Virus record (IMG/VR): IMGVR_UViG_2541047122_000019
Source: a virus
Lineage: Duplodnaviria > Heunggongvirae > Uroviricota > Caudoviricetes
Length of the DNA: 4,893 nt
Strand: one strand, 5' to 3'
The notes under the pieces were generated by a model that saw nothing but the letters and a program-made list of their open reading frames with translations, was not told the DNA's origin and ran no database searches. Positions 1 to 4,893 of this stretch are shown in pieces (position 1 is the first letter of the stretch; each line of letters begins with the position of its first letter). Made by a program: the position numbers and the translations under genes.

Positions 1-463
1 TCCGTTACCGGCGCGGCTTTCGGCTCTGCTGGTAAATCAGCGCCCGGTATGCAGTAACGAAATTTACCGTTCTGATTTACGCGTGCCAGGCGCCCCGTTG
101 CTGTTACGACCGCCAACGTGGAAGCAACCTTGCGAATGCTAACACCGAACTTACCCGCCAGTTCCTCACACGTTTTAGCCCCATCCTGACCGATAAACTC
201 AATCATCATGTCTGCGGTAACTTTTTGTTCGACCTCCCCGGTCAGCACATCCGGCGCTTCAGGTTGTAGTGCCTGCCCTTCGGTTACCCCGGCTTCACCT
301 TCGACAGCCAGAAACCAGGTGTGACCCGTTTTATCAACAACGCCATTTTTTTGAGTTCCCACAGTTCGTTAAGAACTTCTTCACGGCTGATATCAAGCCG
401 CGCCGCCAGTTCAACAGAATTGGCTTTACCCATCGCTTTCAGTGCATGCAATACGGTTTCCAT
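1..463 (-). CDS. Hypothetical prophage protein (winged-helix-like N-terminus); frame interrupted by an apparent 1-nt frameshift in an A7 homopolymer; 3' end beyond the window edge (possible pseudogene or sequencing error)
   Basis: ATG at 463..461 with SD GGGAGGAAG (complement of plus 469-477) 5 nt upstream. This frame gives [39 protein letters not shown] and stops at 286..284 after 59 codons. A second minus-strand frame is open with no stop from about 362 to position 1 (about 118 codons: ...[20 protein letters not shown]...[21 protein letters not shown]). The two frames join at the T7 (minus-strand A7) run at plus 346-352. Confidence 0.5.
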
Positions 464-485
464 TAAAACTTCCTCCCGGTAAAAA

Positions 486-2021
486 TCACTTCGCAATTCC
501 TGGCTGGACGACATTCGGACGCCAGCTCTCCCAGTTAAAATTCACCCATCGCCCGCCGTTCATGGTCATGCGATCCATAATCCGCTCGCCGAGCAATGTT
601 TTCATGGCCTCATAGTTCAGGTTTGTCAGCATCCCCACGCTGCGCATCGACGCTGTCCGGCGATCAACAATCTGGTGCAGCACCACCTGCTCGTTTTTCG
701 TCTCGCGCTGAATGCCAATTTCATCAAGAACCAGCAGATCTACTTCGCACAGCTCCCGCAAAAATTTTTCGCCTGACTGCCCGTCGTCATAGCTGGCGTG
801 CAGGGCGCTCATAACATCAGCCACGGTAACCACAATCACTGTCTGACCGTCTTTCAGCAGGCGATTCCCGATAGCTGCCGCTAAGTGATTCTTCCCGGTA
901 CCAGGTTTTCCGCTGAACGCAAAATTTGTACACCCGGTCATCAGTTCATCGGCGATGGATTTCGCCTGGCTTAACGCGTATCGCTGGCCGTCGTTCTGCA
1001 CCTGGTAATTCGCAAACGAGCATTTACGGTGCAACGGCTGGATGCCTGAACGATTCAGAATTTTTTCCACCCGCAACTGGCGATTCAGGCGGTTGATCTC
1101 CTCGCTACGTTTCTGGCCTTCAGCAAGTTGCCACTCGCGCCACTCCGCTACCGTTCTGAATGGGGCGGTTACATGTGGCGGGGTCAGTCGGCGGATGCGT
1201 TCCAGAACGCCGCCTGTCGCAATATTTTTCATGGTCCGTTCCCCCCTGAAGCCTGGCGGGATCGCACTGTCCGGCAACGAGACAGTGTTAACCTGTCGGA
1301 GCAACGTCTCAGGCCGAACACCTTTCGGCGCGAACAGGCCCTGGTATTCATTGGCGATGCTGTGTCGAATCACCTGCTCAGGTGTAAAACCCTGCTGACG
1401 GAATTTTTCCAGCTCCCGTATCGCCCCGTTAGCGCCCTGCTCCGTTCGAATCGGTTTTCGCAATGCCTGCCTGAACTTAACCCACTCATGCCAGAGTGTT
1501 TCCGGCAACCAGTCAGGCAGCTCGATAGCCTCCGGCTCGAATTTTTTAGACGCTCGTTTTTGGCGAGGGGGATTTAGGGGGAGATCAGTATTTATATCTT
1601 CCTCTTCCTCTGGTAACGCTTTTTGATCCGTTTGTGTAACGCTGCCAGCGTTACCTTTTCGTTTCAGTTCGCGTATTTTTGTAACTCGCTCGTTTGTAAC
1701 CGCCCGTTTTTTAGAGCTTTTTCCGTTATGACGTTCAAAGTTAGGTAGAGAAAGCCCACCGTCATTTTCGACCAGCCATCCAACCTGAATTAACGCATCA
1801 GCAAAACCAGCCATAAAAGTGATGCGGTCTATTGCACTTTTTGTAACGCCGCGAGCGTTACAATCTGCATTACCGTCTATCATTTGTTGATCCGCCCATG
1901 CCCAGAAGCGAATAACCTTCCCTAATGCGGCATCTGGATCAATATTCAGAATCTCAGCAAGCCTGAATATTTCCGGCTTATCCGGCGTAATAACCTCGAG
2001 CTTTATCCAGTTTGAAGCCAT
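486..2021 (-). CDS. Phage replication protein: N-terminal initiator domain and DnaT-like segment fused in frame to a full-length DnaC-like AAA+ helicase loader (YdaU/YdaV-like modules in one ORF)
   Basis: 511-codon ORF, ATG at 2021..2019 with SD AAGGTGA 6 nt upstream, stop TGA at 488..486. C-terminal 248 aa carries Walker [16 protein letters not shown], Walker [11 protein letters not shown], and [19 protein letters not shown] and [10 protein letters not shown], matching E. coli DnaC as recalled from memory. Residues about 175-260 end in [16 protein letters not shown], resembling the DnaT C-terminus. An internal ATG (1232..1230) with G-rich SD would give a stand-alone 248-aa DnaC-like product. 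Confidence 0.85.
1585..1712. repeat. Iteron-like repeat cluster with adjacent AT-rich stretch inside the replication gene; candidate phage origin of replication
   Basis: GTAAC-containing repeats at 1613-1620 (gtaacgct), 1636-1654 (19-bp perfect palindrome gtaacgctgccagcgttac), 1681-1688 and 1696-1703 (tttgtaac direct repeats). AT-rich run cagtatttatatcttcctcttcctc at 1586-1610. The region encodes the low-complexity acidic linker (..[11 protein letters not shown]..) between the N-terminal and DnaT/DnaC-like modules, as ori-lambda lies in the linker-coding part of gene O. Confidence 0.45.
1841..1863. repeat. Palindromic site TTGTAACGC-N5-GCGTTACAA, same family as 1636-1654 and 2034-2054
   Basis: ttgtaacgccgcgagcgttacaa read directly; 9-bp arms are reverse complements. 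Lies inside the N-terminal domain coding region of the replication gene. Confidence 0.4.
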
Positions 2022-2033
2022 TTGTTTTCACCT

Positions 2034-2054
2034 TGTAACGCTCGCAGCGTTACA
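2034..2054. promoter_or_regulatory. 21-bp palindrome TGTAACGCT-cgc-AGCGTTACA in the leader of the replication gene; candidate operator or initiator-binding site
   Basis: tgtaacgctcgcagcgttaca lies 13 nt upstream of the replication-gene ATG (2021), between the ydaT stop (2099) and the SD. Same arm sequence as the in-gene palindromes at 1636-1654 and 1841-1863. Confidence 0.45.
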
Positions 2055-2098
2055 TTTAACTGATACCGAACAAAACAATCCGGCACGATCAATTTCAA

Positions 2099-2521
2099 TC
2101 AATGCACTACGACAGAATCGCCGGGCGACCCACCACCGCTGAAATGTGCTTTCCGGTAAACGGCCTGGACTGCATCATCATGCGCATCAATTGCCGTACT
2201 CAACGCTTCCTGCGCCGCCAGTAATGCACGGCGTTCCAGGGTATCGAAGATGCAGAGTCGGTGACGCAGCTCGCGCGGAAGAATTGCCAGAACCGCAGGG
2301 ATCAGTTTCTGAATTTTTTCCCTTTGCGCTTTCGTTTCACCTTTCAACCAACGGTGATAGATATTCTGCTGATTGTTCCAGTCCTTGCCTGGTACAAGGG
2401 GCAATTCGCCGCCCCCCTGGCGCAGATATTCTTCAGTAATTGCGTTAGCGACCCACGCCTGCCCTTTTTCGGCTGCCAGGGCTAACAACACTGATTCGAT
2501 GTGCTCATGCCTGATTTTCAT
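2099..2521 (-). CDS. ydaT: YdaT-like protein (Rac/CP-933P prophage; described as a functional CII equivalent)
   Basis: 140-aa ORF MKIRHEHIESVLLALAAEKGQAWVANAITEEYLRQGGGELPLVPGKDW... matches YdaT of E. coli Rac-type prophages in length and sequence as recalled from memory. ATG at 2521..2519 with SD AGGAG 10 nt upstream. Start overlaps the stop of the upstream Cro-like gene (ATGA), and the position after cro is as expected for a cII analog. Confidence 0.75.
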   Translation of the reverse strand: MKIRHEHIESVLLALAAEKGQAWVANAITEEYLRQGGGELPLVPGKDWNNQQNIYHRWLKGETKAQREKIQKLIPAVLAILPRELRHRLCIFDTLERRALLAAQEALSTAIDAHDDAVQAVYRKAHFSGGGSPGDSVVVH

Positions 2522-2760
2522 GAATCAACCGCTCCTATGCTGTTTTCGCTATGCTTACCGTCTGGGGGGAATACATCGTCAAGTCCACAATGAGCGCCAA
2601 GCCGATTAAGGGTAGAAACAATTTTTCTGCACTCCTCTAGTCCAGGGGTACGAAAATTTGCTTCGTAATTTGCCAGTCGGCTTTGTATCCACCCTAACTG
2701 AACAGCAAGTTGTCTTTGAGACAGCCCAAGCTGTTTTCGATATGTTGAAATTTTGTTCAT
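2518..2760 (-). CDS. XRE-family HTH transcriptional regulator, Cro-like first gene of the leftward early operon
   Basis: 80-aa ORF; ATG at 2760..2758 with SD GGAGG (complement of plus 2767-2771) 6 nt upstream. HTH signature LGLSQRQLAVQLGWIQSRLANYEAN. Divergent from the repressor gene. Candidate promoter on the minus strand: -35 TTGACC (plus 2804-2809), 17-nt spacer, -10 TTTAAA (plus 2781-2786). Confidence 0.85.
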   Translation of the reverse strand: MNKISTYRKQLGLSQRQLAVQLGWIQSRLANYEANFRTPGLEECRKIVSTLNRLGAHCGLDDVFPPDGKHSENSIGAVDS

Positions 2761-2856
2761 TGAAAACCTCCGATGACAATTTTAAACACACCTTGTGTTA
2801 TATGGTCAATCTGTTTTGTGTTTTATGTAAATCACGATTCGTGATACAAGGATGCA
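2761..2856. promoter_or_regulatory. Divergent promoter/operator region of the immunity switch, between the Cro-like and repressor genes
   Basis: 96-bp AT-rich intergenic region holding the minus-strand promoter elements above and two 15-bp palindromes: AACACaccttGTGTT (2785-2799, over the -10/spacer of the cro promoter) and the perfect palindrome ATCACGAttcGTGAT (2831-2845, just upstream of the repressor SD AAGGA at 2848-2852). No convincing sigma70 hexamers were found for the repressor promoter. Confidence 0.6.
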
Positions 2857-3276
2857 ATGGAAAAAGAAAACGAAAAAATTGCCGCTAGTAGGCTCAATGA
2901 CAAAATTGCAATGCGTCTTAAAGAGCGCAGGCAGAAGCTTGGTTTATCTCAAGGAAAACTTGCTGAAATCTGCGGATGGACGCAATCGCGTATAGGTAAC
3001 TATGAGGCGGGCAGCAGAAATGTTGGAGTGCATGACGCTGTCGTATTGGGAAAGGCACTTGGCATATCTCCTCCTGAGCTCCTATTTGGAGAACAGGAAT
3101 CTTCTGAATTGTGGTTAAATGAATCCCAACGAAAACTTCTTGAGTTGTTTAACCAGCTACCTGGCTCAGAACAACAACGAATGATTGAGCTATTTGAAGT
3201 CCGGCTAAAAGAAATCGATGAGTATGTAGAAAAATATTTGAGAGGCAGGCTTAAAGATAATCCCCCACCGGAGTAA
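2857..3276 (+). CDS. Prophage repressor, XRE-family HTH N-terminal domain with helical C-terminal domain (DicA/RacR-like)
   Basis: 139-aa ORF, ATG 2857 with SD AAGGA, stop TAA 3274-3276. HTH LGLSQGKLAEICGWTQSRIGNYEAG. C-terminal LLELFNQLPGSEQQRMIELFEVRLKEI resembles the DicA C-terminal region as recalled from memory. Divergent from cro and followed by an intrinsic terminator. Confidence 0.85.
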   Translation: MEKENEKIAASRLNDKIAMRLKERRQKLGLSQGKLAEICGWTQSRIGNYEAGSRNVGVHDAVVLGKALGISPPELLFGEQESSELWLNESQRKLLELFNQLPGSEQQRMIELFEVRLKEIDEYVEKYLRGRLKDNPPPE

Positions 3277-3306
3277 TGATCTTGCTATCACAGTAATATG
3301 CCAATC

Positions 3307-3331
3307 AGCCCGCTATCAGCGGGCTTTTTTG
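3307..3331 (+). terminator. Rho-independent terminator downstream of the repressor gene
   Basis: Stem agcccgct (3307-3314), loop atc, stem agcgggct (3318-3325), followed by a T run to 3330 (gggcttttttg). 8-bp GC-rich perfect stem, 30 nt after the stop codon. Confidence 0.75.
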
Positions 3332-3359
3332 TACCATCATCATATGACACCCACCACAA

Positions 3360-3401
3360 AACACATTTCGTGTTGACATAAGAAAACGCATTGTGTTTAA
3401 T
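3360..3401 (+). promoter_or_regulatory. Near-consensus sigma70 promoter (TTGACA-17 nt-TTTAAT) overlapped by an operator-like palindrome; candidate repressor-controlled rightward early promoter
   Basis: -35 TTGACA at 3373-3378, 17-nt spacer, -10 TTTAAT at 3396-3401. Palindrome AACACatttcGTGTT at 3360-3374 overlaps the -35; a degenerate copy AAAACgcattGTGTT at 3383-3397 overlaps the spacer/-10. Same half-site family as 2785-2799. Confidence 0.55.
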
Positions 3402-3581
3402 AAGCATATCCAAACAACGCCCCACCAGAGAACGGCTGGACAATACCTCGAGTTATCCAGCCACTGAACAGGGCTAAGTAGCCAGCCTGAGGCATACGAA
3501 CATGACGGCAGTTGTTGATTGATACAAAGCGCAGTAGATAAAACGTTCCGCCACCCGGCGTTAAGGGGAAATGAGGTCAAC

Positions 3582-3734
3582 ATGGATACTATCGATCTTG
3601 GCAACAACGAATCTCTGGTATGTGGCGTGTTTCCCAACCAGGACGGCACATTCACCGCGATGACGTATACCAAAAGCAAAACGTTTAAAACCGAAGCTGG
3701 CGCGCGTCGCTGGTTAGCAAGAAACTCTGACTAA
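3582..3734 (+). CDS. Small prophage protein of the YdfA/YdaF type (about 50 aa; family name recalled from memory)
   Basis: ATG 3582 with SD GAGGT (3573-3577), stop TAA 3732-3734. Product MDTIDLGNNESLVCGVFPNQDGTFTAMTYTKSKTFKTEAGARRWLARNSD. Position downstream of the repressor matches the ydfA (Qin) / ydaF (Rac) arrangement. The track ORF starting at TTG 3519 has no SD. Confidence 0.65.
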   Translation: MDTIDLGNNESLVCGVFPNQDGTFTAMTYTKSKTFKTEAGARRWLARNSD

Positions 3735-3822
3735 TGAAATCTGGTAATTAAGGAATCCTCCACGGGGGGAGAGTGGTGCACACGCGCCGGACACAAGCAA
3801 GCATCCGGCATGCTCTTTAACA

Positions 3823-4400
3823 ATCTGGATATCCATAACAGTAAAAATCTACAGATTGCCGTTCAGTTTTCTGGCCAACTCTTCAATAGATGGAGGTGAT
3901 ACGTAATCCGGATTTTTATTCATAAGAAACTGATTTTCACAGTACAGGCACCTGCTTTTATGAAAAAATTCATATTCTCTAACCGGGAATGGCTGAAGTA
4001 TCGATACTATCTTTTGTCCAAAACATTTTGGACAAAGATGCATGATTATGCTGCCGCCGTTCACGGTTACCTCCTTCGAGTACACAAAAGTTCCCGACTC
4101 AAGTTGGCTAAGGATATAACCTTCCGTCTGAGCCTCAAAGTTTTCAAATTCTGCAATTTTAGCTTTGAGAGAAGCATTTATTTCTTGATAAGTGCCCACC
4201 AGCTCAACGAGAGACACGCATTCGCGCTGAATAGATGCAAGCTTTGAGTTCAGTTCACCAATAGCCGCATTTACTTCAGCTTGAGTTTTTGCCTCGTTCA
4301 TTAGTTTTGCAATCTGGGCGGTTTCACGAATAGCCGTCATTGCTGCCGTTAATTCAGCGATCACATTCAATACTCTTATTGTTGTTGGGGATATCCAGAT
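3823..4400. mobile_element. Putative small insertion cassette: 578 bp, AT-rich, 12-bp perfect terminal inverted repeats, flanked by a 5-bp direct duplication TAACA, carrying one ORF
   Basis: Left end ATCTGGATATCC (3823-3834) is the exact reverse complement of the right end GGATATCCAGAT (4389-4400). The match extends inward to 17/19 (left 3822-3840 vs complement of 4383-4401). TAACA directly abuts both ends (3818-3822 and 4401-4405). Hand-counted GC is about 35% at 3961-4020 against about 60% at 1201-1260. Confidence 0.4.
3849..4340 (-). CDS. Hypothetical protein, about 163 aa: N-terminal coiled-coil-like helical region and C-terminal CxxC-x22-CxxC zinc-ribbon-like motif; cargo of the AT-rich cassette
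   Basis: Minus-strand ORF with stop TAG at 3851..3849. Best start is ATG 4340..4338 (MTAIRETAQIAKLMNEAK...); alternatives are GTG 4364 or the track start 4517, whose first 59 codons lie in GC-rich sequence outside the cassette and look like a spurious extension. C-terminus has HLCPKCFGQK...(22 aa)...CLYCENQ. No recognisable SD; AT-rich codon usage. Family not recognised. Confidence 0.6.
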   Translation of the reverse strand: MTAIRETAQIAKLMNEAKTQAEVNAAIGELNSKLASIQRECVSLVELVGTYQEINASLKAKIAEFENFEAQTEGYILSQLESGTFVYSKEVTVNGGSIIMHLCPKCFGQKIVSILQPFPVREYEFFHKSRCLYCENQFLMNKNPDYVSPPSIEELARKLNGNL

Positions 4401-4541
4401 TAACAAGATCCTTGTTGTTGGGGAATAACGGGGACCACCTCGCCTGACGTGGTAAAAAGCAGGCACACAACACGAAAGCACACGGCGAGGGACACCATTA
4501 AATGGTGGCTTAAGCAATCACGCGAAGCGCAATCTGCCATT

Positions 4542-4886
4542 ATGACCGATGAAATCCCGTTAGATGATGCACTGTTACAATTGCGGGAATTTATCGACGA
4601 AAACTCCGGTGAATTTTTTGTTCAGGTCTGGGGAAATGGAGCCAACTTCGACAACACGATTTTGCGCCGTTCATACGAACGGCAGGGGATCCCCTGCCCG
4701 TGGCGTTACACCAATGATCGCGATGTAAGAACGATGGTTGCTCTGGGACTGGTGATGGATTTCGACGCAAGAACGACTATTCCATTCGAAGGTGAACGCC
4801 ATAACGCCCTGCACGATGCGCGTTACCAGGCAAAATACGTTTCAGCCATCTGGCAAAAACTGCTCCCGAGTCAGGCTGATTTTTAA
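4542..4886 (+). CDS. DEDDh (DnaQ/Orn-like) 3'-5' exonuclease-like protein, apparently lacking the N-terminal Exo I motif (truncated gene or remnant)
   Basis: ORF open from 4404; track start GTG 4449, first ATG 4542; stop TAA 4884-4886. Exo II-like motif VWGNGANFDNTIL and Exo III-like motif HNALHDARYQ (H-x-A-x-x-D-A) are present. No D-x-E Exo I motif in any in-frame upstream sequence. Weak SD at both candidate starts. Confidence 0.55.
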   Translation: MTDEIPLDDALLQLREFIDENSGEFFVQVWGNGANFDNTILRRSYERQGIPCPWRYTNDRDVRTMVALGLVMDFDARTTIPFEGERHNALHDARYQAKYVSAIWQKLLPSQADF

Positions 4887-4893
4887 TGTTCAA

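Follow-up and report, generated by a model that had tools for sequence, protein, structure and literature searches.

The window analysed here, a 4,893-nucleotide stretch of phage DNA, is a mosaic with respect to the prophages of Escherichia coli. Positions 1-3713 are 97% identical to a Rac-like prophage of strain SJ7, in which kilR, ydaE and a true recE gene come next, and positions 3545-4893 match a prophage at potC. The two homologies overlap at 3545-3713 in a DUF1391 gene, which is probably the crossover point of the mosaic. Among the complete E. coli genomes, none holds the whole window. Within the left part, GAA is found in place of TAA between two replication genes (positions 1239-1241 on the minus strand, inside the ORF at 486-2021). 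This change fuses the gene for a 262-aa hypothetical protein with ydaV, which are separate genes in SJ7, to give a 511-aa ORF, and the ATG of ydaV is kept at 1232-1230.

Beyond the DUF1391 gene, an ORF on the minus strand (3849-4364) encodes 171 aa from a GTG start and is annotated as a 516-bp gene for a hypothetical protein in strains EDL933, 00-3076 and S19-141. The element that carries this ORF (3822-4401), hereafter called the cassette, adjoins the DUF1391 gene and occupies the slot of sieB in Rac. The predicted protein matches phrog_1244, a family of unknown function, and a PADLOC search with the ORF returned no match. By eye, its N-terminal half resembles a coiled coil; a single weak Pfam match fell below threshold, and the C-terminal part carries CPKC...CLYC. 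The ORF has an internal stop in strain CI5 and is mostly deleted in OkiPb01712. The ORF may be a lysogen-expressed accessory or exclusion gene. Just upstream of it is a perfect 13-bp direct repeat, TTGTTGTTGGGGA, whose copies (4379-4391 and 4412-4424) are 33 bp apart and could serve as a regulator-binding site for the promoter of the cassette ORF. A perfect 13-bp inverted repeat also surrounds the ORF (AATCTGGATATCC at 3822-3834 and GGATATCCAGATT at 4389-4401), and the sequence TAACA abuts both of its copies.

Beyond the cassette, on the plus strand, a reading frame with similarity to exonucleases is open from position 4404 to a stop codon at 4884-4886, and thus spans 160 codons as read from the sequence. 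Its upstream limit is an in-frame TAA at 4401-4403. Translation from a GTG at 4449 would yield 145 aa, and from the first in-frame ATG, at 4542, it would yield 114 aa.

The exonuclease-like reading frame

Two of the three motifs that define the DEDDh exonuclease superfamily are evident in this frame. Exo II is represented by GNGANFDNTIL (4632-4664), which starts at residue 77 of the frame and 30 residues past the ATG at 4542, and Exo III by HNALHDA (4800-4820), an H-x4-D motif at residue 133. The spacing between them is 56 residues. The Exo II sequence aligns with WCRGMSFDFPIL of a 227-aa exodeoxyribonuclease (PDB 8KEL) and is kept in all intact relatives of the gene. HNALHDA is identical in the intact proteins of CI5 and 00-3076, and its H and D residues are invariant in the alignment with intact proteins. 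In contrast, Exo I, which supplies two metal-binding carboxylates, is missing, as D-x-E does not occur anywhere in the 160-codon frame. The boundaries and motifs reported in the original prediction are therefore as claimed.

The frame matches the Pfam family PF16473, a Rv2179c-like 3'-5' exoribonuclease domain (Rv2179c/DexA-like), with an E-value of 6.4e-45 and 153 bits against a cut-off of 27. This resemblance is well beyond chance, and it bears out the proposal that the ORF is a fragment of a DEDDh-type exonuclease. The match covers only positions 46-177 of the 177 in the profile, so the first quarter of the domain, including Exo I, is absent and the domain is incomplete. No family was matched in an NCBIfam scan of the ORF, including the RecE equivalog NF007259, and PADLOC gave only a weak partial match to its ‘Exonuclease’ effector model (E=0.0023, over 24 residues). 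An AlphaFold2 model of the 145-aa ORF made from the single sequence alone was an all-helix guess with a mean pLDDT of 43.2.

Not all of the frame belongs to the exonuclease. The original prediction included the stretch at 4404-4488 in the ORF, but homology to exonucleases first appears at 4488/4489, and the DNA in front of that point is unrelated to the gene. This in-frame lead (4404-4487, plus strand) belongs to the DNA upstream of the opposite-strand ORF, and the presence of the GTG at 4449 in it is due to chance. The stretch at 4404-4488 is contiguous with the cassette flank at three relative loci (L007, L005 and L010). Its 28 open codons in the exonuclease frame are unremarkable, and the TAA at 4401-4403 is irrelevant to the truncation because it is located in non-exonuclease DNA. 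Megablast comparisons with phage genomes divide the region at the same place. Positions 3812-4472 align at 93.6% identity with a stretch of PhiR29_1 annotated as ‘hypothetical protein’, which is succeeded there by a different gene, and positions 4489-4893 align at about 92% identity with the 3' end of genes labelled exodeoxyribonuclease VIII or putative exonuclease. The exonuclease portion proper is therefore 4489-4886 on the plus strand. With base 4488, it encodes residues 692-823 of a protein of about 823 aa and the stop codon, which amounts to the last 132 codons of a gene of about 820 (132/823).

Signals for the expression of this portion are sparse. The native start of the exonuclease gene has been deleted, such that the GTG at 4449 lies in foreign DNA and the ATG at 4542 is an internal Met codon. 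No Shine-Dalgarno-like sequence was found 5-12 nt upstream of either the GTG (preceded by ATAACGGGGACCACCTCGCCTGAC) or the ATG (preceded by TCACGCGAAGCGCAATCTGCCATT). As expected of a pseudogene, the frame thus has neither a native start codon nor a ribosome-binding site. A promoter scan of positions 3280-4893 gave zero sites that satisfied its rule, and the sole strong terminator in the scan (3307-3325) follows the repressor gene. Just downstream of this terminator is TTGACA-17 nt-TTTAAT (3372-3400), a candidate early-left promoter that was rejected by the scan rule solely over the second base of the -10 hexamer. Stretches rich in ACA and TGT were noticed by eye around this site and in 2770-2830, and these might be operators. 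Within the early-left operon, the exonuclease portion has the repressor-side promoter region on one side and xis-int on the other, and it is plausible that it would be passively co-transcribed with xis and int from the early-left promoter upon induction. An Rfam scan of the window at the gathering thresholds gave zero matches.

The deletion junction and the intact gene of related prophages

Intact versions of the gene are found in several related phages and prophages. In mEp460, the gene is 2472 bp in length (823 aa, VUF53467.1) and is located between dicB plus a small ORF and xis-int. PPompW phages have the same layout, with a gene like ECO26_1771. The intact genes range from 2457 to 2472 bp and their products from 818 to 823 aa, including WP_046201494.1 of E. 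coli CI5; loci that were delimited outside the window are L003:427-2898, L010:2142-4598 and L009:2127-4598. At the DNA level, the 3' portion in the window is 92% identical to the 3' end of the mEp460 gene and 97-98.5% identical to those of E. coli CI5 and UTME-9. In the protein alignment, the window is identical to the intact proteins from RDTIKWW onward, with three amino acid differences from CI5. The C-terminal end of the intact protein reads ...HLMIDLETMGKNPDAPIISIGAIFFDPQTGDMGPEFSKTIDLETAGGVIDRDTIKWWLKQSREAQ...GNGANFDNTIL...HNALDDARYQAKYVSAIWQKLIPSQADS, of which the window encodes only RDTIKWW onward. Exo I, which is the D-L-E of HLMIDLETMG, is carried only by the intact proteins and lies about 50 residues before the breakpoint. 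The PF16473 match in the intact mEp460 protein (residues 642-813) extends over profile positions 2-177 with an E-value of 6.7e-67.

The gene order in the undeleted state can be read from strains 00-3076, S19-141 and CI5, which carry the DUF1391 gene, the opposite-strand 516-bp ORF with both cassette flanks, a spacer of about 0.5 kb, dicB, a DUF1482 gene and the full-length exonuclease gene. The stretch analysed for S19-141 ends inside the exonuclease gene. The DNA further downstream, examined in 00-3076 and CI5, carries xis, int and potC, and both of these prophages are integrated at potC. Comparison by blastn shows that window positions 3545-4488 are collinear with positions 2806-3747 of one such locus (L007) at 96.5% identity, and that the window from 4489 onward corresponds to L007 from 6696 onward. 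The sequence missing from the window amounts to 2948 bp relative to L007 and to 2926 bp relative to CI5 (L010 1275-4200). The junction at 4488|4489 is clean, with neither filler nor microhomology. Base 4488 belongs to the left flank and happens to complete an Arg codon, AGG in the window versus CGG in the intact gene. Thus, close relatives have an intact gene at the same locus and the breakpoint can be mapped, as expected for a deletion. The original prediction had recommended alignment with full-length homologues to locate the breakpoint, and this alignment places it at codon 692. The loss is of a different scale than was anticipated: rather than about 60 residues of a nuclease of about 180 aa, it comprises 691 of about 820 codons, together with dicB and the DUF1482 gene, or about 2.9 kb.

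The same junction is widespread. Of 5426 complete E. coli genomes, 267 contain an uninterrupted match to a query that spans it (window positions 3700-4893); the matches listed, with 97.4% identity, come from O157:H7 strains and their near relatives. Intact prophages have the two halves of this query about 2.9 kb apart, and these would not have been joined as one match. An exact 32-nt string across the junction is present in three IMG/VR contigs, and no exact copy of the junction turned up when one genome per species was scanned. In EDL933, the stretch equivalent to window positions 4485-4886 is EDL933_RS08260 (NZ_CP008957.1), which PGAP has annotated as a pseudogene, ‘3'-5' exonuclease; incomplete; missing N-terminus’, and which is followed by genes for an excisionase and an integrase and then by potC. 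The scar is therefore already known and correctly annotated in reference genomes, and it represents ordinary prophage decay. For strain O157 Sakai, it has been reported that seven prophages have Exo VIII-type recombination genes and that these genes are intact in Sp10 alone (Asadulghani et al. 2009, PMC2669165).

Origin and present state of the fragment

Direct observation covers the junction itself, the existence of intact relatives, the absence of Exo I and how widely the scar is distributed. We judge, with a probability of about 93%, that the ORF is a non-functional 3' remnant (a pseudogene) of a large exonuclease gene from the early-left operon of a Rac-like lambdoid prophage, and that one deletion of about 2.9 kb gave rise to it. 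The ‘catalytically dead remnant’ that was among the options originally listed is, in this judgement, the correct one. The ancestor would have carried the DUF1391 gene, the opposite-strand ORF, dicB, DUF1482, the exonuclease gene, xis and int, in that order. A single illegitimate deletion would then have joined the upstream region of the opposite-strand ORF to exonuclease codon 692, with the loss of the spacer, dicB, DUF1482 and exonuclease codons 1-691, including Exo I. In DEDDh or RNase T-type folds, the N-terminal quarter of the domain provides the first strands of the central sheet. Because the fragment has neither the two Exo I carboxylates nor profile positions 1-45, we infer that it can neither fold nor catalyse.

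Given the arrangement of the cassette, we considered whether its insertion into the exonuclease gene caused the truncation, or whether the truncation is older than the cassette, as the original prediction allowed. A 13-bp inverted repeat with TAACA abutting both sides resembles the ends of a transposon with a target duplication. However, the breakpoint is located 83 nt to the right of the TAACA copy at 4401-4405, and 00-3076, S19-141 and CI5 have the cassette as well as the intact gene, which upholds the original view that the cassette did not truncate the gene. In the intact relatives, the DNA that holds the left breakpoint runs on without interruption from the cassette flank, so the deletion hit a prophage already carrying the cassette. 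As judged from these alignments, the cassette came first and the deletion later, contrary to the suggestion of an older truncation. The proposed target-site duplication also fared poorly. TAACA occurs 10 times in the window versus 8.4 times expected, and PhiR29_1 homology continues through both copies. A 158-nt query for the empty site, made by joining the cassette flanks at TAACA, found none in 60 records sampled from 332; all 58 full-length matches were occupied, with the query split into two pieces spanning 738-741 bp, and the two one-flank matches trace to the intact relative S19-141 and to OkiPb01712. The latter, which is the only relative without the cassette, retains the 5' end of the cassette ORF and has lost the equivalent of window positions 3757-4327 through a deletion at a 4-bp GAAT microhomology. 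Consequently, TAACA was rejected as a target-site duplication on the grounds of its chance frequency, the lack of an empty site among the sampled records and the different coordinates of the OkiPb01712 loss, and we regard both a truncation caused by the cassette and one older than it as contradicted by these data and very improbable.

Misassembly was also raised originally, and would require that two unrelated contigs had been joined near position 4488. The whole window is absent from complete E. coli genomes, with one prophage type matching its left 3.7 kb and another its right 1.35 kb, as would be expected of a false join. However, the identical junction is found in the 267 independently assembled complete genomes and in the three IMG/VR contigs, and the mosaic joint of the window is elsewhere, in the overlap at 3545-3713 around the DUF1391 gene, with about 0.8-0.9 kb between it and the junction to its right. 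An assembly artefact is therefore scarcely credible.

A pseudogene might be expected to show damage beyond the deletion that created it, and here we see no sign of any, which we have counted against our preferred reading. The remnant has no frameshift or internal stop, and its amino acids are nearly identical to those of intact alleles. Also counted against it is phrog_8783, a PHROG of unknown function whose 114 residues correspond exactly to the product from the ATG at 4542, as this indicates that the short ORF is a recurrent call in phage and prophage annotations. We think it most likely that phrog_8783 was itself derived from the same scar.

Comparison of the remnant with its O157:H7 counterpart in EDL933 offers an explanation for its healthy appearance. 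There are zero differences in the 221 nt at 4489-4709 and zero in the last 30 nt, and the 154 nt in between (4710-4863) differ at 31 positions. The flank on the left side of the junction differs at 9 of 944 positions. Within the divergent stretch, the window is identical to intact CI5 at 153 of 154 positions and EDL933 is identical to PPompW at all 154. This distribution of alleles marks the stretch as a patch acquired by recombination or gene conversion from an intact paralogue, rather than as accumulated decay. O157 genomes carry 5-7 copies of the region, several of them under features named exonuclease, and exchange of such patches with intact paralogues (up to seven copies per genome) would account for a fragment that is open and looks healthy. 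The dN/dS ratio between remnants is meaningless because their differences constitute one recombination patch and not independent substitutions. We therefore consider that the remnant is probably still open because the deletion is young and because sequence has been exchanged with intact paralogues in other prophages.

The same features have prompted us to weigh the possibility that the C-terminal fragment of 114 or 145 aa is translated and acts without catalysis, for instance by serving as a binding module or by being a dominant-negative partner to intact paralogues. The ORF is intact and has scarcely diverged from functional alleles, a 114-aa family equal to the product from the ATG at 4542 exists, and the 5-7 copies of the region in O157 genomes would provide partner exonucleases. 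Against this, the junction is identical in the examples that were compared base by base (the window and EDL933), and the 32-nt string across it recurs in the IMG/VR contigs. Such identity fits one deletion that has been inherited or moved by recombination, rather than recurrent selection. The fragment also lacks the N-terminal quarter of its domain, has no ribosome-binding site at either candidate start and is labelled a pseudogene by PGAP, and the missing decay is explained by the patch shared with intact paralogues.

Nor is the family naturally this short, as had been proposed as another option. A tblastn search of 50,697 phage records with the intact 202-aa C-terminal stretch matched 1268 records, and in 1160 of them the match extends over 80% or more of the query. 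When 60 records were sampled from across the ranking, nearly all had matches starting at query residue 17-25, which is at or just before Exo I, and the family is thus full length outside the scar. With these data in mind, we consider a translated, acting fragment to be very improbable. A specific form of this proposal, in which the product from the ATG at 4542 (the form represented by phrog_8783) is a non-catalytic modulator that poisons or sequesters intact exonucleases of the RecE-N/DexA-like type made by co-resident prophages, has a similarly slim chance of being correct. If it were true, the scar would have been kept through selection and not owing to its youth.

Comparison with known prophages and nucleases

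For annotation purposes, we recommend that the ORF be recorded as a pseudogene fragment rather than as a small 3'-5' exonuclease, and that 4404-4488 be treated as non-coding. The deletion illustrates how a prophage can be disarmed, in that the cell-division inhibitor gene dicB and most of a recombination nuclease were lost together, and its junction can be used as a lineage marker for the prophage module. The more interesting biology lies in the intact protein with its RecE-like N-terminus and DexA-like domain, which is very common in E. coli prophages, and not in the remnant. The 3' end of the gene for this protein is present in 4062 of the 5426 complete E. coli genomes, with up to seven copies each. 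The intact protein is often labelled exodeoxyribonuclease VIII despite missing the catalytic domain of that enzyme.

The closest known counterpart of the window is EDL933_RS08260. The two share the junction and the identical sequences on either side of the patch, and their neighbours are alike, with the DUF1391 gene and the opposite-strand ORF upstream, and with xis and int downstream in EDL933. They differ in the 154-nt patch and in the immunity/replication module to the left of the DUF1391 gene, which is of a different type. The intact exonucleases of 818-823 aa are likewise encoded just upstream of xis and int, but the window lacks their codons 1-691, and with them the entire RecE-like region as well as roughly 50 residues at the start of the nuclease domain.

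The C-terminal domain of the intact proteins (about 175 aa) resembles the T4 DexA-type enzyme of PDB 8KEL with an E-value of 2e-8, and both Exo I (FIIDFETMG versus LMIDLETMG) and Exo II (GMSFD versus GATFD) are aligned. The tblastn matches of this domain overlie dexA genes of T4-like phages, which are about 27% identical to it. DexA-type enzymes of the PF16473 family are free-standing proteins of about 175-230 aa with all three motifs, whereas the window retains only the later portion of the profile.

The remainder of the intact protein is related to RecE (exonuclease VIII) of the Rac prophage in K-12. Its N-terminal portion of about 620 residues is common to both proteins. The identity to K-12 RecE is 51% across an alignment of about 630 aa, and the alignment ends exactly at the start of the DEDDh domain. 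An intact relative scores 897.6 bits against NF007259, which is below the cut-off of 1269, and matches profile positions 1-603 of 877. By these comparisons, the intact relatives are chimeras of a RecE N-terminus and a DexA-like 3'-5' DEDDh nuclease domain. The DexA/Rv2179c-like domain replaces RecE's own catalytic C-terminal nuclease domain, which the intact relatives do not have, and recT is not adjacent to the gene and does not follow it in those prophages. Rac recE and the genes of the intact relatives nevertheless occupy the same slot of the early-left operon, downstream of a division-inhibitor gene of the kil/dicB type and upstream of xis-int, and of the RecE-like part that they have in common nothing is left in the window.
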